NCBI GenBank assembly: GCA_976551045.1 | Contig: CDPCPM010000247.1 | Coordinates: 1,426,001-1,490,000 of the forward strand | DNA from: Glaucostegus cemiculus | Lineage: Eukaryota | Reading direction: 5' to 3' | DNA: 64,000 bases | Shown: one piece after another, positions 2,456 through 61,888 of the stretch | Position numbering within the stretch: the stretch's first letter is position 1 | Layout of the letters: every line of letters begins with the position of its first letter | Position numbers and translations under genes: made by a program | The notes under the pieces: generated by a model | Seen by the model: only the letters and a program-made list of their open reading frames with translations | What the model was told of the DNA's origin: nothing | Databases searched by the model: none

Positions 2456-2562
2456 AGTTCTAATGCGAGGTCACCAAGCTGAAAGGTGAACTTTGTTTCC
2501 TTCTCTGCAGATGATGCCTGATCTACTAAGTATTTCAAGTATGTTTTGTTATTCCAATCTGC
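2456..2562 (+). mobile_element. Penelope-derived short repeat with a degenerate hammerhead core (copy 1)
   Basis: agttCTAATGC GAGGTCACCAAGCT GAAAGGTGaact followed by the ...cagatgatgcctgatctactaagtatttc body shared with other copies. Confidence 0.6.
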
Positions 2563-3309
2563 ATACCAGCTGGAACATTACACTGGAGAAGAGGCATAGG
2601 GAATTGTTACTGGTTTGGATTTACATCTTTAAATCTGAACAAAAATCTATGCTGCTGATCTGACTTGTGTTGCACCTGGACTAGAAATGACTTGGGGGTG
2701 GTGTAGTGAGATCTTTGATCAGGACATGCATACCATCATTCACTTGGAGGTATTAAGAGGGCAAATGCTAAGTAACTTTATTCTGCAGGCTAGAAAAAAA
2801 TGGCAAAAAAGCAGTGCATGCTTGAAAAATTGCATTAATGTACAGTGAAGCAATTTTACTCATCTTTCTGTGCATCTTAATGCCAATCACTACAACAATA
2901 TGCTGAGTTTTGGGTGAAAATTTTGTTTACTGGCAGTGTTTCTCCATTGTCAAACTTGTCTAAATGATGACAGTTGTGCAACACAACGGCCAGATTAGTT
3001 TGAAAAATAACACTCATTGTTTACACACTGAAGAATCTGCTACTATTAACAATTAATTCTCAAAACGTTTAAAGAGCTATTTGTATCACTCATACACCAG
3101 CATGTCTGACTGCTGTGCGTCACTCTACACATGTGTGCCTTACTCTGCTCGCACCGCACTCTTCTCACACTGAACACTGACTCTTTCTTGTCTCCTCTAC
3201 TTTGCTGTGATCAAAGCCAACTCTTTATGGCTAGACCTAATACTCCCTTCATGGAGGACCTAAGCAAGCAAATACTTCCCAGAGACACAGACACCCATGG
3301 GAGCCACAT

Positions 3310-4100
3310 TGTAGGAGGTATACAGTGGAGCAACATCGTAATTGCCAGACTTCAGGGAGCCATCAGAGGAGCAGTGTCTACACAGTTTACGTTTGCACAC
3401 TGAAGTCCTCGCTCGCTTCCATGGCCACCAGAAAGTCCAAGCTCACTGTCAAACTCCTCTCAGTCTCAGTGCAGGATCATTCCAGCTTGAGCAGCCAGTG
3501 TATGCCACGTATCACTGTTTGTTGCCTGCTGTTACTTTTGGGCTATTGTTGATGCTCCTTGGCTTTAATACCAGACTTCATATATTTCTCCATCAGCTCA
3601 CAGAAGCAGACAGACTAGGCACAGGTATTTGATGCGATTGCAGGCTGCCCCAAATTGTATGCTCTTGTAGAGTGCACTGGTGTGGCCAGCACCTCTCCCA
3701 TTCTCAGCACACAACTATCCATTTACAGAAAGACGTGAAGCTCTTGCAACATGCACTTGGCAGTAAGGGATGAGAGGATCTTTATCAATTTTAGGTTTGT
3801 TGTTAGCTCACCTAGCACGTTCTTGATCAGTTGCAGCTGCCCCTCTTCTTTCGGAGACCTACTGGCCTGAAGGATGTATTTTGGAGGATAAGGACTAGCC
3901 CTTGATCCTCCATTCATAGTTCCAAGTGCACCAGGAGGATAATTCAACAATTATCACCATGTCACTATCGGGAACTCGGTGGACTTCACAATAAGACTTT
4001 TCAAAGTAACGTTCTGCTGGTAGTGCTCTGCAAGTATTCAGCAGCCAGGCTGTCATTCTTTACATTGCACAATCTGACCATCAGACAAACCTGGTTAGTG
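3310..4100 (+). mobile_element. PIF/Harbinger DDE transposase pseudogene
   Basis: Collinear peptides SEEQCLHSLRL, SAGSFQ, FDAIAGCPKLYALVECTGVA, EGCILEDKD*PL, TIRLFKVTFC and YSAARLSFFTLHNL follow the HARBI1-like motif order; stops and frameshifts. Confidence 0.8.
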
Positions 4101-5427
4101 TCTGACAAGGTTAAGCAAAGGAGGTGGAATAGCAGACTGGCAACGTACACCAGGGTGAATACAGGGAGCTTCAGCAATAGGACCATGATGAAGGTCCGAA
4201 ACCACTCAGCCCATCAGCCCATTTCCTCATCAATGGGAGCTCCACGCTAGATTTTCTAGAAGATAACATCTTTCTGTACTTGCCAGGGGCAGCATTTAAT
4301 TCTGGAAATATTCTTTCAAGCCTCACAATAAGCACACTTCCTGCACACTCGTTCTGAAGACACGTTAACACATTTGCAGAGTCACTTAGGCCACCACATC
4401 ATCAAAACAATAGTTGCTATAATCAGTTACTTTTGCTTTTACAATGTGGCCGTACTGCAATTAACAATGACTTCCAGGAAGTTACTGGTTTAAAAAGTGC
4501 ACAGACATTCCCTCCCATAAGCAACAGGCTGAGCTCCTAATTCTCCGTTTCAGCCTTACATTGCAACAGAACTTGCTCAGAAACAAACAGGTAATTAAGT
4601 AAGTGCAGTTGTCGTCATTGTGAAACTTGGGAAAATATTTGCTATTCCTCATTGTCCATGTACTGACTTGATTTTCAAGCCTAGTACCTTCTGCACCTTG
4701 AATTAATTTTGGAGACTGAATGTCTTAATGATTTCCTTCCACTTACAAACCTTAAATCCACATTGCAAGACCCACTTAAGAACACTTGTAGTCAAGTGTA
4801 CTTTTAGATTGGAATAGTGTAGCCAGGCTACTCTGAGGTCAGAAGGGCACAATTTGCAGCTGATGCCTCTGCATACAGTTGTTTTACTTGATCAAGGAAT
4901 GCATTCATCATCCCTCCCTTTGGTCTCTAATGATGTCATCCATTTGATTATATCAGTCTGTATAATTACAGATCTGACATCATGATTTGTCAGTCACACT
5001 TGGGTCTTACTGATCCCATGATGTCTTTGTAACAGAAACGGTGATAGAGCTGTGGAATGAGGCTCTTGGGTCAGACATATCTATCTCTGCCTTTTTATTG
5101 AGATACTCCTCCCAACACTGACTTTTGAATGGCCAAGAGTTTTTGAACAGCGAGTGTGTTATTATGTAGTTGTAATAAAGAGCTACAGTTCCCAGAAGGC
5201 AATGCAAGGGGTCACATGGGGAACAGGAAGTGGCTGTAAAAAGAGAGGGAAAGCAAGCCACTCTGGTGTGTTGGTTAATAAATGTTCAGATGTTAAACCC
5301 AGGTGAAGTTTGTCTCTTGATGAAGAATGATCACAACAGCAAGGGATAATGATCGGCAACTTGCAGCTACACTTGCATCTGATGTCAGCGGTCAATCACT
5401 GGCTCTCTTCAATAGAATTTTACTCAG

Positions 5428-5661
5428 TATAGAACATTGAACATAGAACAGTACAGCACAGTATCGGCCCACAATGTTGTGCCAACCTATGTAAACTTAC
5501 TCTATAATCAATCTAATCCTTCCTACACAGTCCATAACCCTCCATTTTTCTTACATCCATGTGCCCATCTAAGAGTCTCTTAAATGTCCCTGTTGTATCA
5601 GCCTCTGCCACCACCCCAGGCAGTGCGTTCCAGGCACCCACCACTCTCTGTGTCAAAAAAA
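5428..5661 (-). mobile_element. CR1 LINE 3' end, 5'-truncated
   Basis: aacatagaacagtacagcacag tail; same subfamily as the copies at 17717 and 35366. Confidence 0.85.
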
Positions 5662-5879
5662 ATAGGAATGAGGAATGATGCTAGTTCATTCCTTGTGAAG
5701 GTTACATGAGGAATGAACTAGCATCTCACAAGAATGGGAGTTACACTATTGCTGCATGTGGCATTAAAGGGTGCAACTTGGATCCATTTACAGAGGCACT
5801 TATCCTATGCTTTGAAGTAACAGTTGCACAAACACTCAATGCTGTTTGGCTGACTTACCTTGGTTAGGCTGTTGTTTGT

Positions 5880-6959: not shown

Positions 6960-7870
6960 AACCCTCCAGTCCTGTGGCTGCTGCCCAGCTCTGAGATATG
7001 GAATATCCATGATATGCTTTTGACATTGATGGGCCTCCTCTTCTGGACTGCAAGGTACCAGCTAGTGTGCATATAGTCTAGGGAAATGGGATTGAGTCCA
7101 CCTCATTTTGAGGTTACCAAACTGAAAGATTGACATCATGGCCTCTACACCTGCCAAGGCCAGTGAATGAAATCTGGATCAAGGCTCTTTGAGCCCTGTG
7201 GTAGCACCCGTGTCTTTCACTACCTGGGGCAATCTGCTGCTGATTGAGGGTTAGCAGAGCTCTGGAGGGCTAGAACTGTGCCTCAACCCCAGATGCACAC
7301 GCCATTGTCTGCCCACTTTCATGAAAGTGTGCATACTGAGACTTCCATCTTCTCCAAAGCTGCCATGTTTCCTAAGCATTGCCATTGCCTGACCTAACAG
7401 ACAGAAACACTATCAGGTGGAAGTGAGGTTCTCCTGGCTCTGCGCCACACGGACAGCCCCTGCTTCTTGCCTCATGGAGCCACGCACTGCTCCAAGCTCT
7501 TGGAGTGCAAGAGCCTTCTACTAAATTCCTCTCTACTGGGGCTCGTCTGAGTCAGTGCCACCAACTGGACTTGGCGCCCGTGAGGCCGAGACTGTGGCCC
7601 CCTTCCCCTCCTGTACCAAGTGTCTCTGCCCATGAAAAGCTGCAGTGTCAGTATCTGGCCACGTGAGAACAGGGACTCCGGCTCGATGCAGTGCAGCAGC
7701 CAGTACCAGCATCTCCTGTTCTGTGGTTGCTGTGAGGGCACCCCTGGGTGGCAAACTGTGGCACAGGGCTCCCTTCCCTGCCTGTTTGAGGGCAGCCAAT
7801 AGTGCTGCAGGTGATGCAGCTGTCTCACAGCTCTAACAACTGATCTCTGCTGCTGTCTGTGTACAATTTG
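6960..7870 (-). mobile_element. GC-rich degenerate coding-like segment, possibly the second (Myb/SANT-associated) ORF of a Harbinger element
   Basis: Composition differs from the flanks; fragments such as NMAALEKMEVSVCTLS; convergent with the 3310-4100 transposase. No Myb motif recognised. Confidence 0.3.
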
Positions 7871-7999
7871 CAGGTTCCCTTGGAGATCATGGGTTTTTTT
7901 TCCCCAGGTTGGTCATTAGCATAGAAATAGGTCATTCAGCACACCACTGTCCATGCTGACCTTTCTGGCCATATACACTAATCCCATATACCTTTGTGG

Positions 8000-8232
8000 T
8001 TGCTTGTGCCACGTGGTCCCACTTTCCTGCTTGTGCTTTGATTTCCTTCCAAAGGAATACTGCTTGTTGGGTAAATTGGCTACTGTAGAGTAACTGTAGT
8101 TTAGATGATCGGCAGTAGAATTGGAGGGGTTGTTAATGGGCATGTGCAAGAGAATAGGTTGTAGGGAAATAAGGGGGGAAATGAGATTATTCTGAGAGCT
8201 GGCCTAGCCTCGATGGACCAAATGGCCTCTTA
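8000..8232 (+). mobile_element. V-SINE (HE1-like) body with CR1-type tail; abuts an antisense CR1 tail at about 7910-7990
   Basis: gtaaattggctactgta V-domain-like core; ends ctcgatggaccaaatggcctc. Confidence 0.6.
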
Positions 8233-8671
8233 TTGCAAAAAAATTTGCAAGTTATAGCTAATCATCAAGCATGTCTAATAATTGCAATGAGAACTTGCAG
8301 TGTACTGCAGCCCAGTTTGCAAATATTGAACACTGGACATGTTTCCAAGGGAAAAGTCTTCAATGAAGGCTGAAATTGCCCACGATCATCTTTGAGACAT
8401 AAAGATGTGTGTTGATGTAAGATTCAGGAATATAGTTGTATTCCCTTGACAGGATGAGTTGAATCATGAAGAATGTGATGATAAGTGAACTTATTGCAAT
8501 GCTATGATGTCTGCTTGTCCAAGTGCATCTCATTTCCATTACATGGCGGAGACCAACAACCCTTTAAAATTAGGCTGTGCAACACCACAATCTTTTAGTG
8601 CTTTAAAAATGTACTAGGAAGAGACATTGTGCCTTTGTAAAGCCACAAAATAGTGCAGACAAATCTGATGC

Positions 8672-8793
8672 AGTTCTGATTCAGAATTTCAACTTGAAAC
8701 TTCAACAATTCCTTTCCCTCCACAGATGCTGCTCGACTTGCTGGTTTCCTCCAGCAGATTGTTTGCAGCTCCAGATTTCAGCATCTGCAGTCT
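8672..8793 (+). mobile_element. Penelope-derived short repeat with a degenerate hammerhead core (copy 2)
   Basis: agttCTGATTC AGAATTTCAACTT GAAACTTCaac...tccacagatgctgctcgacttgctg...cagcatctgcag. Confidence 0.65.
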
Positions 8794-10587
8794 CCAGACA
8801 AACCTCTCACCTTGTATCTCTGACTATTGCAGTTCTGAACCTATGAGTGTAAAGTGATTGTAACCCTTCATCTAACACAGGATTGTTTCATATTGTCACC
8901 ACGTGCCAAGGGTAGGAGATGTTTATTTTTCTGGAAGTAACGACTCAGACCTCTGGTGATTTCTGATAATTCAGAACTCATTAAAGCACATCTTGAATCT
9001 TGGTTCTGAAACAGTTGACTTTGCACTAGTGCCAGAAGACAGATCTCCAATCTATGCAATACTGACTGTCTACCAAAGCAGAAAAAACGAACCTGAATAT
9101 GTAGATGGAAGTTACTAAAGTAACTGCTTTATCTTCCATCCTACTCTCCCTAAATGCAAATTTATTGAGTGTAATAGATTCAGGGAAAGAGTTTCAGAAC
9201 TCCCAATTACATGGACCATGACTGAGTCGCACGTTGGGCTATTCGTGTTGCATAGGTTGATGACTTGTTTATTATTTGTAGTGTTTGTGTATCCAGTCCC
9301 TTTTTGGATCAGTTCCAGAACTAAATTGGTTTGGATTGGAGGTGAAGTTGCCAGCAGTGGGAGTGGTGAGTAGGGTGTGGCGGGTGGGGGTGGGCAGTCT
9401 GTGGGAGAGAGACAGTTGGGCATTGAAAGTTGGATACACTGATGGCTTGAGAGGCCAAGTAAATACAAACCACGTGGAAAGCTAACAGTTTGATCAACAG
9501 TGGGAAGAAAAGCTTTCTTGGTCTGAATTACATGGTTAAGGAAGATAGTTGCACTGAAAGAGGACGGGGAGGGGGAGTGAGCTCATCATATAACCTTTGT
9601 TTAATGAAAGCTATAAGTATTACAGGGAACTTGTCTGATGAGAAGATTTGCTGGGTATTTTGAGCTCCTTTTGCACTTTCTGTTGGCACCTCACTCAAGT
9701 ACAACTTGGTGCCACAGGGAATCAAATGTGATTGTGAGCAAAAGGTTCTTCCTCACTAGAATATCCTGAATCTTCCTGTTACCTAGTTCAACAGAAGCAG
9801 GCAGATGTGAAATTGGTTATGGTGCTGAATTTTGTCCACCAAGACATCCAGACACTAAAATGCAAACAGATAATTAGAATGTACGCCTGAGGAATTGCTG
9901 TAGTTTGGTTAAAGTGAAACATATATTTTAATAAGTGTTTGGTTCTAGAATTGTGACTAGGCCCAGTCCCAACAGATGTTTATTATATAACTGGGGTCAT
10001 ATTGTCGACTCTATCTTTGTTCCCACTCCCTAAACGAATACTCGTCATGACATTAAAATGTTGCAGACTTTCTGCAAGGCAGAAAATCTGACAGAGCAGT
10101 GATGTTTGCAGACTTCTAGAAACTTTAACAGTAAGAGAAGAACTTGGCCCTCATGGATTTAATTATGTCATGAGCTGTTAGTACAGGTCTGCATATCAAT
10201 CTGCTGGCTGCAAACATTTCTGTAACATCAGTTTTGGATTCTTCAGTTGTATGTGGTGAAGTGTTTGGGTGTGCAGGAGTTAACTTCCCTACCTTTTTAA
10301 ATCACTACAGCATGTAAACCTAACCTTACACACGGGCCATTGTCCTCTGTTTCTTTCCTGTGCCTGTCTCTCTCTAGCACAAATAATGATATCCTACAGG
10401 TCACATTTTTTAATGCTGGTTTTCATGCAGCGTAGCCAGATGGCCTCTTTTGGCTCACGTGAGAGGTTTTGCTTTTGTTCCAGCGGACAATGGGTTATTC
10501 CTGGCAATGTTTAGCACTGGAGACTCTGCACACTGCCTTACTGGCCTGTTCCCTGAAGATTTACATACTACAGACAAGAATCCTGGT

Positions 10588-10621
10588 TCTCTCTCTCTCT
10601 CTTTCTCTTTCCCTCTCTCTC
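10588..10621. repeat. Imperfect (CT)n microsatellite
   Basis: tctctctctctctctttctctttccctctctctc. Confidence 0.8.
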
Positions 10622-12599
10622 CAGCTGCCTTTCTATGGGTCTGGCCTCTAGCCAAACTCCTTGAGAGTAATTTTGAGGCCTGCTTGAGTTACTTCATGCA
10701 TTTACATCATCCCCTAGGGAGTGAGACTGCCTAACTAAAAGCAAGAGAGTTAATCAGCTGGAGAAGTGTGCATTCCTAAACTTGTGGTGGGGCAGGAATT
10801 TCTCATCTCTCAAGATTCTCCTCAGCTACGTCCTGATTCCCCCTCGTAACATCTGAAATGTCTTCACTGCAAACACGAACTTTAAGATTAACCTTTTATT
10901 TGCCCCTTTTGGCGTGCCAAAGTTTTCACTGAGTTTTTGTCACGTGCTCTGCTAATCCTCTAATGTAAAGAGCTGAGGTGCCACCTATTACTTAGGTGAT
11001 GAAAACTACACTGAGTTGTTGATCAAGTTTGGTGAAGTAAAAGAAAATGAGAACAAGGAAACAACTGATGTTAGAAATCTGAGATGAAAACATGCTAAGC
11101 ATTGATCGAAGGAAGAAAATAATGTAGTTAATGCTTTAATTAATTGACTACATCGGAACTGTTCTGATGAAATTTTCAATCCATCTTTCTCTCTGTGACC
11201 TACCATGTACAGATGATTTTTCTTTTAAGAGTGATCTGAATATGACTGCAACATATGCTTGCAATATAAAGGGGTGTCACTGGCTCAGTGCTGTATTAAG
11301 TTTTGGGGCAGAAACATCGAAGTTCCTCACTTGCAGCGGAATAGCTATCGCTGCGCTCTGGCTTTGTCCAGGGCTGCTGTAGAGTGTGTGATCTTTTATA
11401 ACACTGCACTTTTCCGTTCACCCTTTTTGGTTGAGTCTGAGGAATGGTTATAGAGTTGTTCCCAATGATGTCATAGCACAGTGATCCTGTTGAATGAGAT
11501 AAGGTTATTGGCTCCAGCCTCTACTCCCCACTCTGTATTTAGCTAGAAGATGATTACTTAAAATGCCAGCATTCCACATTTGTTCTCTCAGATGAAAATA
11601 TGGATTTTCTGGGTGGGAAATGCATGCTCAGTATGTTCCAAGCGGATTGCCCCAGTGACCTTTCCAATGGGATGGTTGGGGTGGATAGGGCAGCAACTGT
11701 TTGAAGTTCCCATTGCAAAACTCAGCTTCCCTGAATGCAGCTGGATCCAGCCCGACTGTACTCAGGGGAAATAAACTGCATTCAACCAAACCAACATTAC
11801 TCAAAGGGACTGCAGAGGCCTCCGTCAAAAAAGTTTTATTTAAAACAAAAAGCTGGCTGGGAAGTGGAAATGGGGGATGCAGGAGAGTCATGCCCAACCC
11901 AATTTTCAGCATAACCTTGGTGGGCTCCTTGCTTCCACCCCAGTGCCGGGGGTTACCTGGGTAACTGCATCTGTAACCATAGATTCAAAACTGAAATCTT
12001 TTCTGACAGTATGTGAAAATAATGCTTAGTGCTCGAATGTTATTAGCCAGACCATGCCTGTGAATGCTCATCAATTCCTATTGGAGAAAACAGCTCCAAG
12101 CTGATTTTGATGCATTTCTGAGGGGAAAATGCATTGCTATAAGTGTAATCTTTCTGATCAGATGTTCAACATGAACACATAGGTAGCAATGATATAATGA
12201 TTCCTTGAAAAAGCATAACTTTTTTGATATTGTAGCTAATAATCCTTTCCCACTACCGGTAAAAACTTATTAAATGCATCATTTTTTGTGTGGGATCTTT
12301 CTGGATACACAATAGTGCTGTGTTTGTTCATGTAATAACAGATGGTTATTTCTTGCATGTATCCTACCTTGGGATACTTCCTAGGAAAAATCCCACGTGC
12401 TAGGTTGGGATGGCCCAGGGAAATGAATGCTGAGATTCGAGGCGAAGCGGTCTTGGTTGAAATGCGGAGAGGCCCTCTCTCATATTGCTGAAGAGACTCC
12501 TTGGGTAGTAGATTGTTGAGCAGCAGTGGGGGGAGGTACAAAAGGAAGGGAACACAAGTAGGGGATCCCTGTGACTTGGACACAGTGACACAAGAAGAG

Positions 12600-13480
12600 G
12601 AATGGCCTTGCATGCATGGGCAAGATCAGCAAATATATCATTAAATCCCATTATCCACCAACTGCTCCACTTGACTATCTTCCAATAAATTCTCAATCAG
12701 CACTTGGGCCTTAAAGTGATGTGGCCACCCACACGCTCAGATAATCAGCAGCAACAGCATGGAACAGCTGTGACCCAGTGGAGGATGTTCACAACATCTG
12801 TAGCCTGTGACAGGGCAATGACTAATGAAGATTATAATGGTATGCTCAACCCCATTCTCCTTTCTTAATTTCTCTCAATTCCACAATCTCATCATGTACA
12901 AGAAGCAGATCATGTGGTTATGCACTGCTTACTGGCCCACCTTTCACCATCAGCCTTCTGTGCCCTTCTCTTTATAGATGGTGTAGAATTCCCACCTGAC
13001 CAGCAGAAGAGTGAAGAATATTCCCAGCTTGGGTATTGGGAATGCCATATTGTGTCATGCAGGTGGGGTCTGCATTAGGAGCGTAACCAGCAGCTGGGGT
13101 AGGGGGCATGATGGTCCAGGCATCTGTTCCAAGTAGTTGCAAATTAGTTCTGCCACTGAAGATTTGGCTGAGGATTTTTATGGGATTCTCTAGAGAAGGC
13201 GGCTGATAAGTGTGCATAATGAGATAGTTGGTGCACTGGCATGGCTGTCAGACATACTGCATGTAACGCCAAGGTACTTGAAGTTCATCTGCAAACTCAC
13301 AAGACTGTGCAGAACCTGGAGTTCTTTGCTTTCCTGCATGGAAGTGGTGCCAGTTTTATTCTGTCATGTTCAGACACAATCTCATATACACCTGCTGGCA
13401 ATGGTCTCAATCTTGCTTCCAGGTTTTCCTCTACTGAAGGATGCATCTCTTCAGGGAGGTGGTTTCACATAACTAGAATG
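12600..13480 (-). mobile_element. Highly decayed non-LTR retrotransposon 3' part (I-group, Ingi/Vingi-like)
   Basis: Minus-strand remnants KYLGVT, GRTNLQLLGTDAWT, TGYRCCEH/LHW and a Cys-rich C-terminus appear in the expected order. Confidence 0.4.
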
Positions 13481-14015
13481 TATTATTTACATGTGAGCCA
13501 TGAGAGCTGCAAAAGTTTTTCACTCATCCCTATTCTCATGTCAATGTGCACTTCTAGCAGGGGTTTTTGGGGATGGGAAGTTTGCCATTTCTCCCAACAT
13601 AATTCAGAGGCTTTTGGCAAACTTATTTGCTCTACATCAAACTCCCCTCTCCCCACCATCCCTACCGTTACCAGTCCCAAGACTGTTACTCCTTTTGGCT
13701 GAAATCAGCCACCTCCTGGACAGCGAGGGAACATGTTTAGAATCTGTTAATTATGGGGACATGACAGTTGATCTGAAGTAGAAGTTCAACCATGATCTTA
13801 TTAACTGGCAGAGATGACTCTGGACCAAATCGTTTACTCCCTCTTTTGTTTTCTATGGTCCATCAGCTCACTACAAGATAAACTCATTGTCATAGAGAGA
13901 TCTAAATAAGTCTGTCTGGAAATACTGGAAAGTCACTGCTATAGAGAGGGAGCAGAGTTTGGTTTCTGTGGAGATTTTAGCAGAGTACAAAATCTGTTGT
14001 TTTTTTTCTCTTTAG

Positions 14016-14027
14016 CAAGAATACTGG
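14016..14027 (+). other. Candidate 5' UTR exon of DENND2A (12-nt microexon, or the 3' end of a longer first exon)
   Basis: ttttttttctctttAG|CAAGAATACTGG|GTAAGT: strong acceptor and consensus donor; exon 17472 has an acceptor, so an upstream exon is required. Confidence 0.4.
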
Positions 14028-15065
14028 GTAAGTCATTAAATTATTCTTCAGTGAGGGTACTGTTGAAATATATGTATTTTTCAGGTCTGGAGTTACTTTG
14101 CAAAGGTTCCAGAATTAACCATGCAGGAACAACTCAAGTCACAGCTGCTTCATACACAAGCTAAGCTGAAGAAAGTCCATCTGCCCAGTTTGATGCAGCA
14201 CGTGATTGTCAAGAGAATTTTCTTGACCAAATTTAGTCATAAAATAACTGATCTCCTTGTGTGTTTAATTTAGTTAATGGCATATAAGTAAAAGAAGAAG
14301 CCAGGAAGAGAGTTTAAAATTTTTCCCAGTGCTGGGCACACGGCCAGAGCTGAAATGTAGTTTGTCTGGAAAAATAGAACACCAAGGATTTCACATATTT
14401 TATTGAGGCTTCTTTGTTTGACAGACAATGGTGTCTTCCTATTATTTCTCTTCTATTGTGTTGCTATGGTTATCCACTCTTCATTTCAGTTTTTTCTGTA
14501 ACAGAATAATGAGTTACTTTGGTTTGAGTTCAGCAATTGTACAAGTTTCTCTGTATTCCTTTTTTAGCCTTTGGAAGATTTAAATGCATCCTCTACAAAG
14601 CTATTTCTACAGAGGGTGTATGATATAGTGTTCACTTAATCTAGGCAATGAGTTATTCCTCCTGGTCAAGGAGGACATGACATGCAGTTTTAATGAATAT
14701 TGAGTAGGGGTGTGGCATAAAGAGGCAAAGATATGGAACCCTCTGCATCCCCAGTAGAAGAATCCAAGACGCACGTATTTTGGGAAGGGGTCAAATTTCC
14801 CAAGTGGTGCCAGGACAACATAATTGAATATTGTGCTTACGCAGTAGTCCAAAACCCTATAGAGAGTAATGGTCTGTGCAGTGTGATGATCAGCCTGGTG
14901 CTAGGCTAATATTGAAGTATAGATAGAATTGTGAATGAGACCTTCAACTACAAGTTGCTCAGTTTTTACGTGCATCCATATCTCCTGGGATAGAATAGCC
15001 AGGAAAAAAGCATACTAAGTGCCCTAAGCCTATTTGTTTTTGTATTTGTTTTCTTTTGACTAGCT

Positions 15066-15309
15066 GGTGCCAATGGCCGTGTGTGTGTTTGGGGGTGGTG
15101 GGGATGGGGCAGAAGCAGGGGTTGGGGTGCCAATGGCCGTGTGTGTGTTTGGGGGTGGTGGGGATGGGGCAGAAGCAGGGGTTGGGGTGCCAATGGCCGT
15201 GTGTGTGTTTGGGGGTGGTGGGGATGGGGCAGAAGCAGGGGTTGGGGTGCCAATGGCCGTGTGTGTGTTTGGGGGTGGTGGGGATGGGGCAGAAGCAGGG
15301 GTTGGGGTG
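15066..15309. repeat. Perfect tandem repeat, 60-bp unit x about 4.07
   Basis: Unit ggtgccaatggccgtgtgtgtgtttgggggtggtggggatggggcagaagcaggggttgg is identical in all four copies. Confidence 0.98.
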
Positions 15310-16315
15310 GAAATAGAGAAACAGCCAGAAAGTGTTTTTGAAACCCAACAGGGTGAGCTGAGAGTTGTGACAGCAGAAACATGGTCATTAACCCAAGGCT
15401 GCGTCAACAGCATAGTATTTGTTAAGGTCATATTTCTCACTCAGATGGTTCAGGGGTTCTTCCTTGTTAATGATCTTCATATATCCGATCACATCATTAA
15501 ACATCATTTACGGGGGTTTCAGCTACCTTACCCCGACCTTCACACAGGGCACAATTCCAACAGGCAAATTCAATGCAGTCCATCAAATAGAGGCAGGAGC
15601 TTCATTACAATATTAAATAAAGGATAGATGCCATTTGTTTATTTTCCTGTTATTGTTTTGTGAATAATTAAATAGTCAGAGGTAAATTAATTGCAATTTT
15701 TTTTTGTGAAATCTGGATTTAGCAGATTTGACTCCAATTTTGCACCATTCATGATTATATTTTCCCTGCGATGAAAAATCTGCTTCTGTAGCTCCTGGCT
15801 GCCAGTTTTCCTCACGGACTCGTATTCTATATTGACTCTCATCAGCTAGTTTTCCTGATTATCATAATGCAGCATTTCGCATTCACAAGATGATAGTTTG
15901 AAGCAGACGAGAAAAAAAGCATCAGCACTCAAAATCTGAATTATGTAATGTATTACAATTAGACCTAAATTAATCATCAGTTTACACTCAGGCTTGAATC
16001 TTACAGGGGATAGTTGGGGGGTGGGAGTGCAGTCCAGCAGGGACAATGTATAGTAACTGATATTGGATGGATCCCTGGACCATTTTGTGTGTTATATCGG
16101 GGTTGCTGAAGTCATTTTAAATCTCAACTCCTACCCAGATGGGATAAGCTATAATTCTATGGACCAAGAATCATACCTGTAATTTTCCATTTTCTGGTTG
16201 CCTGCATTCCTTTTGTGGATGATAACATTTAAAGTAATATTTTTCCATAAAGTTTATGATCAGTTCATGGTACTTCAGCCATGCCAAGTAGAACCAACAA
16301 ATTGCCAAAACCTAG

Positions 16316-17481: not shown

Positions 17482-17567
17482 ATGCCTATTACCAACAGGA
17501 TGATAGCCAATAAGACAGTGGCATTAAACTGGACAGGAACAACTTACAATTCAAAGACCATTGATCG
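17482..17567 (+). CDS. DENND2A: DENND2A coding exon 1 (exon starts 17472): MPITNRMIANKTVALNWTGTTYNSKTID(R)
   Basis: Acceptor ttttataccctttggcAG ends 17471; ATG 17482 has A at -3; donor CG|GTGAGT at 17568; phase 2 matches the phase-2 start of the exon at 24321; resembles the DENND2B/ST5 N-terminus. Confidence 0.8.
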
Positions 17568-37042: not shown

Positions 37043-37085
37043 TTCTTAATTCTCAAATTAATTCCTTTTCCTCCTCGACTCTTAG

Positions 37086-49300: not shown

Positions 49301-50059
49301 GGGAGGAACTACTACTTTAAGCAGAGTTGATTTGTGTTATATACCTCATAGGTTTAAGTTCCTGTGTGAGGCAGGCTGATGGCTCGGGGAGATGGGAGGG
49401 AGTCTACCTCTGCCAAATTGAGTTCACTCTTTTCAAATTCTGATGTTCCAGAATCTAATGGAAAGCAGCTGTTCCAATATTTTTGCTGTCCACCATATCC
49501 TGAGGCACTGTCACATAAACACTGCATTTAACTCTGCTAGAAATATAATTTGGCCTTTCACTGGGAATCTTGCCCACTTCTAATGACGCATTTAAGTGAA
49601 GAGAGTTGAAGGGAGAAAAACAGCAAACAGTCCCTCCAACATCAGTGATTGCTCTCAATCAGAGGGGACTGGCTCCATATCCAGAGAACTGTCTGCAGCA
49701 TCTCTGTCAAATTTTTACAGGATAATGGCCCAGTCTAACAACAACTGTAGTGGCAGCATCTTAAGATAACTATTCTATTGACTGTGACATGTTGGATCTT
49801 ATGTTCATCCCAGATGCTTATTATTCAAGCTATTGCATAAACATGATGAAGTAAAATCATATGTTTCATTTCATTAAAACTTCCAAGCTTGTTCCTAGAT
49901 TACAAAGATCTGAATTTTGAATTTATTGTGGCTTAAATTACTAATTTATTGCATCTTTTTAAATATCCTTGTGTATTCTTTAGTTTGAAGAGTATTCCAT
50001 TTTTTGGTACTTGGTTGGAGCATGGAATGCTCACAAACATAGTTAACTGGATAGATCCC

Positions 50060-50176
50060 ACCCTTCGTTAGAAACATTAAAGTCTGTTTCTCACAGATGC
50101 TGCCTGACCTGATGAGTGTTTCCAGCTTTTTTGGTTTTATTTCAGATTTTCAACATGTGCAGTTTTTTGTATTTTC
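50060..50176 (+). mobile_element. Penelope-derived short repeat (copy 5; hammerhead core largely deleted)
   Basis: gaaacattaa...cacagatgctgcctgacctgatgagtgtttccagc...tttcagattttcaacatgtgcag. Confidence 0.7.
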
Positions 50177-51833
50177 AAGCAACACAAGCGTGTGGATTTA
50201 GCAGGATTGTAGCATCCCAGTGATTCAAACTGTCACTGACCACACTTGTATTGTGCATCCTATTTGTATGCTGAGACATTGCACCCACACGTTTCCCCTC
50301 TCCAGTTTGTCATTCTCTGTAAGAGAGAGGAAAGTTAATGCCTTACAATTAATTTGTTGTTCCTGTCATGGTTGATCAGCTGTGAATATTCATTGTGTTT
50401 GGATGTGTGACTTGGAGATTTGTTAATGCAGTGGGCCAAGTAAATGCTTGTGCCAAGCTCTGATTAATAAGGATTGTTGCTAAGTAAGTTGAGGGGTGAG
50501 ACACGAGTGGTCAGTTGATGGAAGATAGTGTATAAAAACATTAATTGATTTTGACTGCACATGTGAGGTCATTGAACTTCTTTTAGCATTGTATCAATGG
50601 GCTAGATTGTTGCCTTTTTGTGCATTTCTACAGAATTGCCCCCTTTATACCCCCTGCGTTCAATGCACCTTCAACTTGCACACCTGGATTGGAGACACAC
50701 TGGAGGTCAGAAGGTCTCACCTCCCACTCTGCTCCTGGACTCTCCTTAAGTTTCGTAGGGGCTGGGTGCATTCTGAGTCTGCCCCTCAACTTTACATCAG
50801 CCATGGGTGGGTGGTGCATAGACAATGACCCCCTTCATTTGAATGGGGTCACCAATCTTCATTAAAAAGGGGTTTTGATGTTTTTACCTTTATATTTTTC
50901 TGAGCATTTTTAATTAATTAACAATAATTTAACATTTATTATTTTGGCTTTTTAAAAATACATATAATTTTAAATAATTTCAACTGATTTTTTGATGTTC
51001 CTGAATATAAGAAACATAAAATAAGTGAATAGTGCCACTCACGACAGCAAGCTTTGGCTGCTGGGGCAGAGCTGAGTTTGGGGACTGCAGTTGTGCCACC
51101 TGAGGCTTTTTGTGGGATTGGTCCACCTCTCCTGGCAGTGACCTTGGCATTGGCCACTGCTGTTTTATTGTGTGCCAGGAGGATGTCCTGGTCCCCTTTG
51201 GGTAGAGGACATCCTTCTCCAATCCTATTGTCTCTATTAAGGACTCAATCACTTACCAGAAAATTGGGGTGTCTGTTCTTGACCATATTCAACTATGGCT
51301 CAGCATTAGACAGTTTGAACTGATGTTGGAGACTTATGAATTGTACCTGTGGTGATGCATTATGTTTATAAACAGTTTGGGTATGGATTGGATGCTGGGA
51401 TCATGATTATGCGCGGGGAACTTGGTACCTGGTCTAACGGATAATGTTAATCATGTGTCACAATCCTAGTCACCATTTTCCAATTTAACACTTGTGCTGT
51501 TGGAGGTTGCAGAAAGTTAATTTGATTTTTAATAGTTACCATGTAGATATTCTCAGTAATATTAATTTTACAAATTGAAACCTAATGTAGTTCTATATCA
51601 TTGACCAAGATGTTAATCTTGATGAACAAAAATGGAAATAATGGGTTAAAAAATCTATTTTGTAATAATTTTCATCTTGGTCATCCAGCACACTGCAGTA
51701 CTGAGACCTGTGTACCTATGCTGCATGCTGGTAATGTGTTTATCAGGACTAAAGAAGCAATCGTGTTTGGAGTCAGTGGTCTGCTTATCACTGGATACAG
51801 AGTTTCTCACCATTTTTTTTTCTCCTCTTGCAG

Positions 51834-52011
51834 TACCCTATCCAAGTGCTGCCATGCAGTGATGGCACTTCTATATCCTTTTGCCTGGCAGCACACCTAC
51901 ATCCCTGTTTTACCTCCATCCATGATTGACATAGCCTGCTCTCCCACTCCATTTTTGATAGGACTTCTCTCCAGCTCCCTGCCCAAGCTGAAGGATCTGC
52001 CACTCGAAGAG
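51834..52011 (+). CDS. DENND2A: DENND2A exon 14 (TLSKCCHAV...YPFAWQHTYIPVLP...LPLEE)
   Basis: cttgcAG|T ACC; donor GAG|GTAAGA. Confidence 0.96.
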
Positions 52012-52039
52012 GTAAGAAACAGTGTTTTATTCAGAGGTA

Positions 52040-52560
52040 CTCCATGAATGAAAACAGTGAATACTTGATGGATGGTGCTGTAATAATTGAGGATAAAGCT
52101 GAATGAGACCTAGAAGATTTAGGCAATCAATGCACAGCAATTAACAATGTAGCCAAGAGAGCAATCTAAATATATTGTGTTCTGGTCAGACCACGCCTTG
52201 AGTACTGAGTCTAGTTCATTGAAATGAGATATTTGCTCATCAGAGGCAGTGCTGTGGCATTTGTTTGGTTAAACTATCAAAGGGGTGAGCTAAGTGGAAA
52301 GATGGGAGAAATTTAGCCCCTTTAGCCTTGATTGTACAAGATAGGTACAGTAAGTCTGAAAGTTTAACTTGAAATAAATTGAGAAGGACAAGGAGTCATA
52401 GCTTCAAACTATAAGAAAAGAGAATTTAAGAGTGATATCAAGAAGTTTTTTTATTCGCCTTGGAATTTCTGTAATAGATATAAAAACTCTGGACTTATTT
52501 AGGGTCCAGTTGTATATTGGGTCTTTATATTTTGCCTAAATGAATGAGTAAAAAAAGGTT
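52040..52560 (+). mobile_element. Ancient CR1 3' fragment
   Basis: ctggtcagaccacgccttgagtactgagtc encodes LVRPRLEY*V. Confidence 0.65.
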
Positions 52561-52624
52561 AGGTGGCATCCCTGTTCTTTGTACTCCTTTTCTCCAGAGT
52601 GTTTAGGAACATTGAATGAAAGTC

Positions 52625-52838
52625 AAAAATACTGCAAAGACTGGAAATCTAAATTATAAACAGAAAAGGCTGGAAATACTCAGCAGGTCAGGCTGAATCT
52701 ATGGGAAGAGAAAAAGTTAATGTTTTGGGTCAAAGACTAAAGAACTGACAAAAGATCTTCAACCTGAAATCTGAATTCTATTTCTCTTCCCACAGATGTG
52801 GCCTGACCTGCTGAATATTTACAGCATTTTCTGTTTTT
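52625..52838. mobile_element. Palindromic head-to-head Penelope-derived repeat (copy 4)
   Basis: aaacagaaaaggctggaaatactcagcaggtcagg...cctgacctgctgaatatttacagcattttctgttt; centre CTGACAA AAGATCTTCAACCT GAAAT. Confidence 0.75.
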
Positions 52839-53218
52839 TGCTTAGGGACATTGTTTCATTAAAGAGCTAAAATGACATGAGGACCTTGTATTGTGAGATT
52901 AGCATACTATCCTATCACATTACGAACCTAGGTTTGACTTCAGTCCAGCTACCAATAGCACCCTCCTACAGTTGAAGAATGTGTCCTCTCCAAACTCGTC
53001 TCTGAGATGCACCTTCAATTCACTTCATCCTGTTCATGCCATTAACCAACCAACTTCCCAGGGATGTTGGTCTCAAGATTTCTGAATGGGAAAATCTTGA
53101 ATTAACCTTTCATTATCTACAAAGTACAATGTGTTTTTCTTTGTCACTTTTGTTGACTGGTTGTTGTGTTTGAGATCTAAGATGTGGAATGAAACTGTCT
53201 TTTTTATTTCTATTTAAG

Positions 53219-54690: not shown

Positions 54691-56006
54691 GTACTGAGTC
54701 ACCACTCTGGTACCGGCCTGTTTGTAATCGGAGACTGTCCAAAGCTATGCTGCAAGTTCCTGCAGATTGTAGTGTATCATAAATGGTAAAAAAAAAGTTT
54801 ATTAATAATAATGGATAATCTGTAGATAAGGCAAAACAGAAAATGAAAGAAAATACAGAGAATGAAACAACAACAAAAATAGGGCTCTGGTCCACTGTAC
54901 TGCTGCTGATGTTGGAGATAACAGACAGCCCCACAGTACTGCTCCTTCTCAGTTGAACTGAAAGTGTTGATTTTGTTTTAATAACTGAATCATCTTCTAT
55001 CATACTTTGGGGCAATGCATTCCACATCATAACAATCCTAGTGCAAAAATATTTCTTTTAACATCCTCTTTTTTTGATAGTTGCTTAAATTGTACTCCCC
55101 CGACTTTTGACTAAGTTGGGCTCATGTTCCTTAAATAAAATCCCTTCCCTTTTCCGCAAAGGATTTGGGGAAAAATAAGCAACATATCCCTTCAGATGTA
55201 ACTTCCATTTGAAAAATGAACTGGAACCAAGGAAATGAAATCAAACCTGCAGTCGGTAATTGAGAACAAATGCAGTATCCATCTATCCTGATTTTATACG
55301 TTTATTACATTCTCTCCATTCGGTGATGCTTTCTAAATATCCTCCAGCCTCATTACCAATTCTCTCTAGTTACAATGTGAAACCTTAAGATTTCTGCCTG
55401 TGTGGTTTGGGTATTGGTACTTTAAAAATAACACATTAGTTTCACAGATGCTTGAAGATGCCATGCTCTATTACTAAATTATTACCCCATATCTCTCAAT
55501 CCAATTCACATTGCCAATAGTTCAAATGCCCTTGGATATCATTTTCTTTAAAAAATTTAGTGCGAGATTATCCTTAGGTTTTGCAGAGTTGAGCTGGGTA
55601 AACATGACTCTCATTTATTACATTTGCCATAGATGACAAATGTAATTTTTTTTTGTCTTTAACTACCTGTTTAAGTGCACATTCTGCTCATTTGTTTGCT
55701 CTTTGCTTCATAATTTAAAACTTCAGTTGTTGTCTTTACTCCTCCTTGTCATTGAAACTGCACTAACATTCCTCCAAATTGCTCCATCCTAACATGAGAA
55801 AGGAAACATACATAACTGGTTTAGTATGTCTGAATTCGACTCTTTCCAGATGCTCTTGAGCAACTAGTATAGGACAAAATGGGATGCAAATGAACACAGA
55901 AAAACAGAAATAGTAATATTTAAGCACAGGAGACATTATCCTCATGGGTACATCCAAGTTCCTCTGATGAAATAGATGCTGAGTTTTTTCCAACTTCCTT
56001 TTCTAG

Positions 56007-56246
56007 GTCTTGGCTCACTTAATACTGTGGTATCTGAGACTTTTGTCCGCTTCTTTGTGGAGATAGTAGGTCACTACTCCTTGTACATGACGTCAAATGA
56101 GAAGGATGAAAGAATTTTCCTGTGGGAGGCATTTCGCAAATCCATCTCATCAAAAAGTGTCCGTCGATTTCTGGAGGTTTTCATGGAGACGCAGATGTTT
56201 GGAGGATTTATTCAAGATCGAGAGCTGAGGAAGCTTGGGGTGAAAG
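56007..56246 (+). CDS. DENND2A: DENND2A exon 17 (dDENN: LNTVVSETFVRFFVEIVGHY...METQMFGGFIQDRE)
   Basis: ttctAG|GT CTT; donor G|GTGAAG. Confidence 0.96.
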
Positions 56247-57438
56247 GTGAAGATTTAGGTCATGGTACTGCCTCCTCCTTCCTCCTTTCTCCAGCCACTC
56301 ATTTATCTCATTCACATCTTTTGGCAGCTGGTTTCCCTTCATAGAAAAATGAATAACGTGATCAAACCAATACAAATTATTGCCCTATGAAACATTTAAC
56401 AAAATGTAATCAAATGTAATGTAAAATTTATTCAGTCACAACTAAAACAATTTTCTCTGCTACACTGACCAGTACATTTAGTATAAAAAGGTAATTATAA
56501 AATGTTGCTTAAAAGGCTTTACTTTCATGATGTACCTTTCATCTGGCATGTCCCAAAGTGCCTCTGCTGTAGCACAGTCCACCTTTCCTGCTTGGATGCA
56601 CAGCTGTTTGTTTTTAACCATTTGACAGGAGAGGGAAAGCGAGAGTGCTGGCTTGGTGCAGGGACAAACAAATATTCACTTCGTTGGATTGCTTCTTTTA
56701 ACTAAACTGCAAAGGAAATTGTCCACAGCAGTGGGCCTCCATCAGATTTGTCTTGGCTAAAGCTAGATCCAGTCCCAGCCACACCCATGCTCTTGCTTTA
56801 GAGAAGATAGCAGAAGGTTGGGTGGATGAATGGCCAGTGTAAACATATAAAAGTATCCTAATAGGCCAGGCCCGTCAAAGTTTGAAACCACCAATACCAA
56901 GGATCTTTTTTGGGAATCTTCTGTCACCCCCTTACCAAAGATCCTTGGTGGAAAAGGGGTAATAGAATCTTCTTTTGGAGAGGGGAACAGGCATCTCTTG
57001 CATCAAGGGCTGGTATGATTCAGCCGATCATCCTGTACTTGTGGGAAGCCGAAGGCATTAAATACAGCTACCCATCATGCCAAATTAGTGAACTGCATAG
57101 CCCTATTGAATTTCGACAGAATAAGGACCAAAGTTTCTCAATAATTGAATAAAATCAATTCTGTTGAACATTTACTACTATGATTTGTATAGAGTTGGTC
57201 TCACTGCAGCCTGACTTGGATGGGAATGGACTAGTTGGGCAGCAGGGCACTTCTATGCCATATGACTCTGTTACTTCACTTGTTAAATGTTACACACCTG
57301 AGGATGTGCCCTAGCATGTGTGCCTGCATATTTTATGCAATTCTACCAAGCCTGTCGGCAGTACCTGGAACTGATATTACATTCTATGTTCTGACTCATT
57401 TGTATCTTTCCCACAATGAATGTTTTTGTCTTCTATAG

Positions 57439-59344: not shown

Positions 59345-59376
59345 TGAAATATGATTGAAATATGATTGAAATATGA
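59345..59376. repeat. 11-bp tandem repeat (TGAAATATGAT) x2.9 in the 3' UTR
   Basis: tgaaatatgat tgaaatatgat tgaaatatga. Confidence 0.85.
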
Positions 59377-60272
59377 ACATCAGCTTTGGATAGGGAAGGT
59401 CATCCTTATTCTATTGCCCAGTCCTGGGAGGAAAGCATTTTAATAGAACTTAATGCCTTCTCTGCAGATTCACCTGGGATTCAAAAACAACTGTATGGAG
59501 AACTTCAAAGACAAACTCAGCTATGGTTGCTTTGGTGCTAGATGTTAGAGGATCAGTATATTCCACAACTATCGAAGCACATCTTAGTGATCATAAATTC
59601 AGTGCTGAGTTGCATTCACTGCATGACTACATCAGGCTCAAGGGTTCACCTGCTTTCCTTAAAATATAGGCTTGTGAAAAAGTAATACTATTCTTTAGGT
59701 AGTAGAGGCAAGTTTTAAGACCTTTGGACTAGTTAACAAGAAGCCTTAATTTATAATGTACTGATAAACCATAGTCTTGAAAATACTACCTAGTCCCCTT
59801 GCTTTGGATAATTACCATTTTGCTGAATGCGTCCACAGCAACAGTTACTTGGAGCATTTGAAATAAGGACGGTGACAATAGTGGGAGGCTGGAGGGAGAG
59901 TTACCAGAAAAAAGGGCCCTAAGGATTCCTGGATGCTGAGAATCAAATTGTAGGAGACAACCCAAGCATAAACAAGTAAATGTATATATAAAACAAAATT
60001 GTGAGTATACACAAGCCCACAAATATATTGGTTAGAGTGAGGAGGATTATGGTTTGTCTAATAATTGGAAAAGGGATTTTAGGAGCATATTCAAAACAAA
60101 ATGGCTCCTGACCAGTGTTCACAGACACGCTCCCTTGTTCTTATAGTGTAATGCTACAAATCCTGGGATCTGTTCACATAACTTAAAGAAAATTCTATTT
60201 ATTTCAGTGACCTAATTAATCAAGATCTGTTGTTTGTATTTTGTTGGATTAAATTTTTGGGTATGAACACTC

Positions 60273-60278
60273 AATAAA
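60273..60278 (+). terminator. Polyadenylation signal AATAAA
   Basis: Follows a T-rich stretch (tgttgtttgtattttgttgg) typical of distal UTR ends. Confidence 0.6.
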
Positions 60279-61765
60279 GACTTTTTAAAAAAAAGTGTTA
60301 AATTGAAAAATTATATTCAATGCATAAGGAAAACTTACATTGTGGAAAAAAGGCTGTATCAATCTCGGGGTTTTTAAAATACTTTGAATATGTACAGTGC
60401 TTTAACACGTGACTATTGTTTAGCAAGTCACAAGCCCCAAAAACTATAGTGGGATAGCCAGCTGCACAGGAAGGAATAAATGTTGTCCAGGACTTGTTTG
60501 CTACAGAAAATTGCTCATCTCAACTTATACACTTGAACTCTACTAATTTTGGCATGGAATTCTGGGACAATTAGCAGCACTTCAGTTAGCTTGTTTTTGA
60601 ATGATGAATCGTCTAGGGAAAAATTAATGGCCTTTTATTCTACTTAGATAAGAATTCATCCTTTCCAATGGGATGGAAAGGAATGTCCCACATACTGCTT
60701 GGTAGAATATTGTCATGTGCTGTCTGCTTTCACCTGTCCACACTCTCCCAAAAGGACTTTGCTGCTCTGTAGAACTCTGACCTATCCCAGCAAAGGAAGT
60801 ATGTTTTGAGCTCCCATTACGGGCTTCTCATTTATTCCTTGTGCAATGCACACTGTTGGCCCACTACACCAGCTACATTGTGCTATACAGGAAATACCAA
60901 AAATATTCCCTGGAGAAGCACCAAGTAGGAAAAGAAAAGTGAGAAATAAACTCAAGCTTCTTCACTATTTTTCTGTTTATGTGATCACTCCTAACCTTGT
61001 GTCTGGAATGTCACATTTCAAACAACTGACAATGAAGAGATAATTTTACATAATATTTCTCAACAATGCTTTTGCCATTTTTCCTGAAAAAAATACCAGG
61101 AAGGGCAAGTGGGAGTTAAAGCTCTTCACTTTTGTAATTCTGTTTCAGTCACAGAGGTCCTGCAACACATTGCTGAGTTTTGAATTTACCTTCAGAAAGA
61201 AAGTAGCTGTAATCTCATACATGCTTTACACAGGGCGAGTCGAGGCAAAACTAGAAAGGCATCACTTCTCTTTGCTTTCATCAGCTCCTACTGAAAAAGT
61301 TCCTGTACAATCATGCATGTTATGGGAAAAGATTCTTACCTGAAAATATCAACCAGGTCTGACTCAATAATACTTTTATTTCAAGATTATACTTGAAATT
61401 TTGAATAAAGGCAGGAATTACTGTGTGAAATAGAGAATGTGCTACAACTGACTTCTTGGGTCATTAATTGCAACTGGCTAATGCTTTTCTAGTGACTGCT
61501 GATTTTCAACGTGAAGGCTTCATATTAAGGACTCCTTAACTAATACTGCATGAGAGACTACTTCAAATACATTAAAAAAAAGGTTATTTTCCAACCTCAA
61601 CAGTATAGGTGTGGAAGAGGCTGCAGATTAAATTTCATCAACTGAAATCTCATCACTGTACCTGGTAATATTGCAGACTTGAATATTGTGGATTAAATAA
61701 TTCCCAACAGCTACCACTTTAGATAAAAACAAGTTGGATGTTGCCTCTCTGCACAATGGTCCACT

Positions 61766-61888
61766 TTCCCGATTAAAGGTCATTGACCTGTAACATCAAC
61801 TCTTTTCCTCTCAACAGGTCAAGCAAAAACTGCGCAGTGTTTCCAATATTTTGTAATACTTCAGAATTCCAATATCAGCAGTTTCTTG
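61766..61888 (+). mobile_element. Penelope-derived short repeat (copy 6)
   Basis: CCGATTA AAGGTCATTGACCT GTAACATCaact; helix II AGGTC/GACCT is intact. Confidence 0.55.

Follow-up and report, generated by a model that had tools for sequence, protein, structure and literature searches.

The 64,000-nucleotide stretch of Glaucostegus cemiculus DNA analyzed here (the window) carries a set of short repeats whose heads resemble a minimal hammerhead ribozyme, raising the question of whether such repeats were spread by processing at their own ribozyme, as in a retrozyme-like non-autonomous family, or were inserted by another route.

Six repeat loci comprise nine arms

The original prediction listed six related repeats. 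Searches with blastn and nhmmer recovered all six loci at the expected places and showed them to be mutually related, but the count had to be revised to nine arms, three of the six loci (at about 36.9, 50.05 and 52.7 kb) being head-to-head pairs and three (copies 1, 2 and 6) single arms. As the nhmmer profile was built from the window copies themselves, its E-values show only the absence of a further copy in the window (the next match had an E of 0.096). The insertions, about 100-135 bases long, are old and mutated, and comprise the following features:

2456 to 2562, plus strand: copy 1, a single arm; decayed hammerhead head (2456-2492) with 3 core departures, body, and a partly deleted tail; target duplication absent from the flanks
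8656 to 8666, plus strand: left target-site duplication of copy 2; 10/11 match with 8795-8805, p 0.008
8667 to 8794, plus strand: copy 2, a single arm with tail; the head starts at 8672 and has 2 core departures
8795 to 8805, plus strand: right target-site duplication of copy 2
36894 to 36992, minus strand: minus arm of locus 3; core boxes intact, tail absent
36990 to 37044, plus strand: plus arm of locus 3, the inverted partner; head deleted, tail present
50035 to 50073, minus strand: minus arm of locus 4; a short inverted head, strongly decayed, tail absent
50071 to 50172, plus strand: plus arm of locus 4, from the GAAA box; both body and tail retained
52603 to 52614, plus strand: left target-site duplication of locus 5; 11/12 match with 52842-52853, p 0.004
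52615 to 52746, minus strand: minus arm of locus 5; 5' arm of helix I, core deletion, body and full tail
52745 to 52841, plus strand: plus arm of locus 5, from the core onward; tail absent; overlaps its partner by 2-4 bases
52842 to 52853, plus strand: right target-site duplication of locus 5, enclosing the whole pair with 52603-52614
61766 to 61888, plus strand: copy 6, a single arm with tail; perfect 5-pair helix II, 3 core departures; target duplication absent from the flanks

The six loci sit in and around a vertebrate gene.

Inspection of the arms shows that a tail of about 30 bases is carried by one arm only in all three head-to-head pairs, and that a junction palindrome and an inverted pseudo-LTR arrangement are present at three of the six loci. 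Seven of the nine arms have their 5' ends at the 5' arm of helix I or immediately beside it. Target-site duplications of 11-12 bases are significant at two of the six loci when compared with 3000 random flank pairs, and no significant duplication was detected at the other four. At locus 4, the CUGAUGA box attributed to the plus-strand copy at 50.07 kb is absent; the stretch before this copy is instead an inverted head, which is the best held-out profile site (14.6 bits among 127,918 positions, in a ranking without the six heads used for training or shifted registers of them) and which a cruder pairwise test did not score as significant (p 0.36).

The majority of the repeat heads fits a minimal type-I hammerhead

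Alignment of seven heads yields a majority sequence, several columns of which rest on three of the seven rows, with a four-pair helix I (AGUU/AACU), the core CUGAUGA, one bulged base, a five-pair helix II (AGGUC/GACCU) closed by a 3-base loop, and then GAAA, C-G and UU. As had been proposed, this majority passes an exact descriptor of the minimal type-I hammerhead, for which 3e8 simulated bases gave 0 matches. The same descriptor finds 0 matches in the window itself, in keeping with the claim that every copy is mutated: single copies carry 0-5 departures at 12 core positions and differ from the majority at 8-15 of 37 columns, and the only one with an intact core (at 36989, minus strand) has two broken helix II pairs and has lost half of helix I. 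With a generic descriptor, the seven heads score above random windows (Fisher p 1.8e-5, the copies not being independent), and helix cells are paired in 66.7% of cases as compared with 20-40% for slid partners, a comparison favored by the derivation of the structure from the same rows. The palindromic positions 15.2-16.2, which stand in place of helix III, are C and G in three of seven rows each and mostly T and A in the others, as CpG decay predicts.

Covariation in the helices, assessed within the window on seven decayed rows, did not exceed that of shuffles, and a scan of the decayed, minimal copies against Rfam 15 returned four matches at E up to 5, with no hammerhead among them. An unconstrained fold of the majority keeps helix II and pairs the core in another register; since this alternative is the more stable (-7.3 versus -5.9 kcal/mol for the hammerhead fold), folding energy lends the hammerhead no support. 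The six decayed repeats share a majority that fits a minimal hammerhead and is predicted to be self-cutting; the ancestral motif would be expected to need a dimeric form or the aid of a protein in order to cleave, and the present copies are predicted to be inactive.

The inverted arms, together with the covariation and Rfam results, could be read as the marks of a MITE-like or palindromic DNA repeat that resembles a hammerhead by chance. We consider this scarcely credible, as the descriptor has a chance of less than 1 in 3e8 positions, and as the loci differ from terminal inverted repeats, the paired arms meeting head-to-head in the center with unequal ends and three of the loci consisting of one arm only.

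Insertion anatomy links the repeats to Penelope-like elements

Dispersed single minimal hammerheads of this kind have already been described and ascribed to truncated Penelope-like elements (PLEs) (PMC4209133). With the minimal hammerheads of PLEs (Cervera and de la Pena 2014, PMC4209133), the window family shares CUGANGA, the bulged base, helix II, GAAA, a palindromic 15.2-16.2 followed by UH, a short helix I, and a distribution as mostly dispersed single motifs with some opposite-strand pairs. It differs at 10.1-11.1, usually G-C and here A-U or G-U, and no reading frame linked to it was found in the window; Fig. S3 of that paper has no chondrichthyan row. The repeats add a family, likely of cartilaginous fish and decayed in all of its window copies, to a motif class known since 2014.

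The Penelope connection had originally been drawn through a neighboring fragment:

1925 to 2160, plus strand: claimed PLE coding fragment; not confirmed and not counted as part of an element

Rather than lying just upstream of copy 1, this fragment is separated from it by about 295 unrelated bases, and it gave no significant match in Pfam, phmmer, tblastn or profile searches. Pfam returned 0 families in 3/3 frames, a phmmer search of 1.84 billion proteins with one frame returned 0 matches, and nothing was found by tblastn with two frames of a coral element (L015, see below), with a profile of 120 coral proteins, or, on the plus strand, with 117 proteins by tblastn and profile. Its frameshift-aware score with the coral-protein profile (17.4) falls below the 95th percentile of the null (18.5), and a profile of 16 diverse proteins gives 13.9 against a window mean of 16.1, none of the proteins in the search profiles being known to come from a vertebrate; 59 of the 117 proteins run singly place the fragment at rank 141 of 424 bins. 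Within the window, no PLE reading frame (RT and GIY-YIG) linked to the repeat family was found. Visual comparison aligns a few residues from three frames of the fragment with the Neptune linker, a likeness that we did not count.

The connection to Penelope holds on the basis of insertion anatomy. Published accounts of PLEs (PMC3846280; PMC8557442) describe pseudo-LTRs that are inverted head-to-head, one of the two bearing a tail of about 31 bases, as well as junction palindromes, duplications of 8-10 bases and solo pseudo-LTRs. The window loci share with EN+ PLE insertions, as set out in the literature (PMC3846280; PMC8557442; PMC11167929), head-to-head arms, a junction palindrome, a one-sided tail of about 30 bases, duplications near 10 bases and solo pseudo-LTRs, and differ from them in that the whole insertion amounts to the last ~120 bases, once or twice, without the coding part. 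We favor, at a probability of roughly 0.8, the view that the window repeats are decayed solo pseudo-LTR end-pieces of an endonuclease-bearing PLE, inserted by its protein and not through ribozyme processing.

The ribozyme-processed, retrozyme-like family of the original prediction would instead require tandem units that are cut by the ribozyme, circularized and reinserted. Its type-I hammerhead consensus is in place, and a 2026 preprint both reports tandem retrozymes from the single chondrichthyan genome it covers and connects retrozymes with the pseudo-LTRs of PLEs (10.64898/2026.07.22.740005). Non-LTR retrozymes (PMC7229834; bioRxiv 10.64898/2026.07.22.740005) are likewise non-coding and PLE-related, but they are head-to-tail tandem units yielding circular RNA, whereas the window family is dispersed, inverted and minimal. 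None of the three tandem arrays in the window consists of the hammerhead repeat, the units are only about 120 bases long with minimal rather than canonical hammerheads, and an Anolis PLE inserts in vitro without a need for cleavage (PMC11167929). Moreover, the seven arms with 5' ends at or beside the 5' strand of helix I contain a motif that cleavage would have removed; a 5' end fixed before the motif, and never at the cleavage site (0/9 window arms, 0/34 tail-anchored coral copies), indicates that the insertions do not derive from cleaved RNA. A retrozyme origin is accordingly disfavored, and we judge it very improbable. What PLE hammerheads do is still termed a mystery in one account (PMC7761336).

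A young family, likely from corals, shows the same start, pairing and tail asymmetry

A comparison family (L001-L121), likely from stony corals, was retrieved using the Neptune motif of Acropora given in Fig. S3 of PMC4209133. This Neptune-type family resembles that of the window in starting just 5' of helix I and in its pairs, tail asymmetry and similar duplications; unlike the window family, it is young and near-identical, with a linked endonuclease frame and TATA-like box. Of 112 copies, 94 reach no further than 9 bases upstream of the core, with a step at -7, and 36 have an inverted partner. Among 20 pairs, the tail is on exactly one arm in 16 and on both in none, and 12 are flanked by 8-14-base duplications (2.9% by chance); no start at the cleavage site was seen among the 34 tail-anchored copies, most of which are partner arms. 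Short copies coexist with longer ones that reach the endonuclease frame (L015, L030 and L111). In L015, frames for the PLE endonuclease immediately precede the repeat in the same orientation, and a TATA-like box lies 30-32 bases ahead of the common start base in 8 of 11 longer copies. The two arms are identical in 4 of 21 pairs, compared with 2% of 284 cross pairs, a result that fits one source per pair and that two-strand priming and fold-back fit alike. Sequence homology between the window and coral families is only hinted at, by their tail ends (p 0.018). The coral motif had 0 matches in viral contigs.

A possible run-off origin for solo hammerheads

Published PLE biochemistry (PMC11167929) suggests that the PLE protein would nick AT-rich DNA and that reverse transcription would begin at one of two sites shortly downstream of the hammerhead; two such sites would give arms with or without a tail. 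We infer that the cDNA would end just 5' of the hammerhead, most simply if the RNA begins there, and that the second arm could come from priming on the other nicked strand, or from fold-back of the cDNA end, and be attached in head-to-head orientation by way of a few bases common to both arms.

Because copies start just before the hammerhead, in the coral family about 30 bases past a TATA-like box, short copies may be complete run-off cDNAs. We tentatively extend this idea, at somewhat less than even odds, to solo minimal hammerheads in animals, which might be 5'-complete, strong-stop-like cDNAs rather than randomly 5'-truncated PLEs. Reverse transcription would then proceed from an internal site closely following the 5' hammerhead to the point where transcription starts, a few bases ahead of helix I, and each pair would represent one insertion in which both start sites are used once, so that exactly one arm would carry the tail. 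In the window, 7/9 arms start at the place matching the coral start, but an upstream promoter is not preserved; the initiator-like sequence TCAGTT seen at locus 5 was not taken as evidence, being created by overlap with the partner arm, and a bacterial promoter scan, irrelevant to the source organism, was not counted. Pseudo-LTR junction palindromes and TATA/Inr motifs have been published under a self-priming model (PMC3846280); a run-off or transcription-start reading of solo hammerheads was not found stated in the literature searched. The repeats by themselves matter little, and this lead matters more. If the 5' end is a transcription start, it would explain why solo hammerheads outnumber full elements and would allow the formation of PLE inverted pairs to be tested directly; if the run-off reading is true, the PLE promoter could be located in any genome from the common 5' end of the repeats.

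Contig data from four further organisms back the motif in its 3' half

Contigs were compared at locus 5 for 4 of 13 listed runs, from four other organisms. All four runs place 7,619-26,776 contigs on this locus; the family tail motifs had 0 matches in viral, metagenome and prokaryote genome contigs. Depth-weighted majority letters from the four runs give back GAAA-Y-R-UU-AACU with the CpG-decay pattern (at position 52771, G in 58-67% and A in 27-31%), and a loose-end consensus of the contigs yields helix II. Between 52745 and 52769, where depth is low and biased to the reference, the contigs show no letter differences, and the CUGAUGA box is thus not independently restored by the four runs. 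In sum, the contigs lend support to the motif's 3' half and show a family of high copy number.

Such a very high copy number, like the sharp common 5' start and the absence of a linked reading frame in the window, would also suit a separate SINE-like derivative, a short master gene with its own transcription that begins just ahead of the hammerhead and borrows the PLE protein in trans; non-autonomous PLE derivatives are reported (PMC8557442). In corals, however, short copies stand beside longer ones that enter the endonuclease frame, making a separate master unneeded, and we regard such a derivative as unlikely. The window data fit it and the end-piece reading alike. In support of the preferred reading, 14 of the 15 contig joints shown (331 in all) lead from the minus arm to the plus arm, as would be expected from other head-to-head pairs.

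Arm number and pairing of the repeat family

All six repeat loci of the original prediction are present and mutually related, and no further copy of the family in the window reached significance. The arms (single repeat units) number nine rather than six, three of the loci being inverted pairs:

36894-36992 (-) with 36990-37044 (+): locus 3, by self-comparison of the window
50035-50073 (-) with 50071-50172 (+): locus 4, by a profile built on the remaining six heads (the hammerhead-like arm starts)
52615-52746 (-) with 52745-52841 (+): locus 5, by self-comparison of the window

For the locus 4 minus arm, the summed pairwise test was not significant; in the profile search, 50073 minus was the top held-out site of 127,918 positions.

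The majority head matches a type-I hammerhead

Seven heads, taken as the 80 bases that precede the shared body, were scored blind with a descriptor derived from the min-HHR consensus of PMC4209133. Their scores were 14.8, 12.9, 20.1, 8.0, 5.1, 15.5 and 8.6, the null being 5.9 ± 3.4 (Fisher p = 1.8e-5, a value that overstates independence, as the copies share ancestry). A fairer test is the single column-wise majority sequence, some columns of which are supported by just 3/7 rows. This majority fits the exact descriptor, with four pairs in helix I and five in helix II; even a laxer descriptor matched nowhere in the window or in 3e8 simulated bases. The predicted hammerhead consensus holds at the level of the descriptor, and its 3' half is backed by outside runs. 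Against it, an Rfam scan found no hammerhead, pair covariation over the seven rows equals that of shuffles, and unconstrained folding of the majority favors a different register.

The outside data are four DNA runs from four organisms, with 7,619, 19,530, 24,722 and 26,776 contigs on locus 5. Weighted by depth, the contigs over its decayed plus arm mostly carry G (58-67%) or A (27-31%) at 52771, T (89-92%) at 52773 and C (66-74%) at 52776; at 52770, a T in the reference, 21-25% carry C. These letters read GAAA-C-G-U-U-AACU after CpG decay. Helix II was recovered in the loose-end consensus behind 52713 in all four runs. The four-run comparison lists no differences across the 5' core, a low-depth stretch with a bias towards the reference, and so does not independently restore the CUGAUGA box. 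The locus-5 junction is also spanned, with 2-10 differences, by contigs from three other organisms, indicating that this insertion is likely old and shared.

Insertion anatomy points to a Penelope-like element

Three non-ribozyme features of the family point to a Penelope-like element (PLE): head-to-head pairs, a one-sided tail and target duplications. The pairs meet at the 5' arm of helix I, the locus 5 arms overlapping by 2-4 bases, a geometry repeated in 14 of the 15 joints listed (331 in all) from outside contigs. The ~30-base tail is confined to one arm in 3/3 pairs. The locus-5 pair as a whole is flanked by a 12-base duplication (11/12 match; p = 0.004), and copy 2, a single arm, by one of 11 bases (10/11; p = 0.008); duplications at the remaining four loci were not significant. 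This anatomy fits the PLE traits described in PMC3846280 and PMC8557442, namely inverted pseudo-LTRs, one-sided tails, junction palindromes, 8-10-base duplications and solo pseudo-LTRs. The tail also corresponds to the two internal reverse transcriptase (RT) start sites of an Anolis PLE, which nicks and extends both strands and inserts in vitro independently of ribozyme cleavage (PMC11167929).

The family had instead been read as retrozyme-like. Retrozymes are reported in the single chondrichthyan genome studied in bioRxiv 10.64898/2026.07.22.740005, the supplements of which may include this family. Non-LTR retrozymes are described as tandem units, each carrying its own hammerhead, that are processed into circles (PMC7229834; bioRxiv 10.64898/2026.07.22.740005). 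The window holds no tandem array of the repeat, and 0/9 arms begin at the cleavage site: seven start at or beside helix I, one at the GAAA box and one inside the body. The hammerhead was correctly caught but is an ordinary feature, minimal and mostly solo PLE hammerheads having been known since 2014, and the retrozyme label over-reads it. A search of largely open-access literature turned up no publication that names this fish family; the available text of PMC7229834 and PMC8557442 contains no shark terms.

A likely coral family shares the anatomy and has a sharp 5' start

The same anatomy is seen in a Neptune-type family (L001-L121) of at least 121 loci and at least 128 copies, found with the Acropora Neptune motif (PMC4209133 Fig. 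S3); its copies come from few assemblies and are hence non-independent. The family is young and likely from corals. At L015, linker and endonuclease frames lie directly upstream on the same strand, and homologues of these frames, those named being corals, carry RT and GIY-YIG domains. Among the matches listed, an inverted partner is present in 36/112 copies; in pairs with enough flank, the tail is on one arm in 16/20, on neither in 4/20 and on both in 0/20, and 8-14-base duplications flank 12/20, against 2.9% by chance. A tail-only search returned 36 copies among the matches listed, two of them spurious; 0/34 start at the cleavage site, and most are partner arms. Direct comparison only hints at sequence homology between the two families: their tail ends share a short CAGCA...CAGTTT motif (window 8770-8800 and 37012-37048 versus L003; p = 0.018), possibly a common RT start signal.

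The one testable lead from the window family is the position where copies begin. The motif, the number of copies, the geometry of the pairs, the one-sided tail and the duplications are established; we infer that a PLE protein would insert at a staggered nick and that reverse transcription would begin at one of two internal sites; more tentatively, the cDNA may stop at the RNA's first base, just 5' of the hammerhead (the run-off model). For this model the coral family is the better test system. Among the matches listed, its copies (e.g. L015 3806-4564, L089, L093, L094) share a sharp 5' start seven bases before the hammerhead core; homology in copies with a 60-base flank is lost ≤9 bases upstream of the core in 94/112 and at 10-16 in 5/112, while 13/112, three of which served as references, run ≥31 bases upstream. 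A TATA-like box lies 30-32 bases before the common start in 8/11 long copies among the matches listed, a distance typical of polymerase II initiation; no such promoter is preserved upstream of the window copies. Two points count against the generality of a run-off end: in Drosophila virilis, a 75-base intron whose end falls at helix I (PMC4209133) begins 46 bases downstream of the transcription start (PMC2377424), and the palindromes already have a published self-priming model (PMC3846280).

Genomic setting

The PLE-like fragment proposed upstream of copy 1 (2456..2562, +), at 1925-2160, drew no significant match in Pfam or phmmer searches, nor when tblastn, profile and frameshift-aware alignment set it against Neptune-type proteins, 120 from corals and 117 of diverse origin; because none of those proteins is known as vertebrate, it may still be a very decayed PLE piece. 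Some 295 bases of unrelated sequence separate it from copy 1. Between them, at 2180-2318 and 2384-2444, lie a stretch that ends in AATAAA and short ATTCTG repeats, resembling a LINE tail, and a 27-base inverted repeat.

The window overlaps a vertebrate gene whose product has DENN and dDENN domains, and which we take to be DENND2-like, along with sequence next to it:

24301-25590, 51586-52047, 55976-56344 (+): exon-bearing frames of the DENN/dDENN-domain gene, by domain search
35944-36819 (-): two adjacent LINE-type RT-domain frames (Pfam RVT_1)

Loci 3-5 lie between exons of this gene, locus 3 some 75 bases from the LINE-type frames. A second dispersed family (5436-5662, 17716-18152, 35364-35800; pieces 68-94% alike), the third copy of which adjoins the LINE RT, likely represents LINE 3' ends. 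At 15066-15309, a 60-base unit repeated 4.1 times in tandem with 100% identity is either very recent or an assembly feature.
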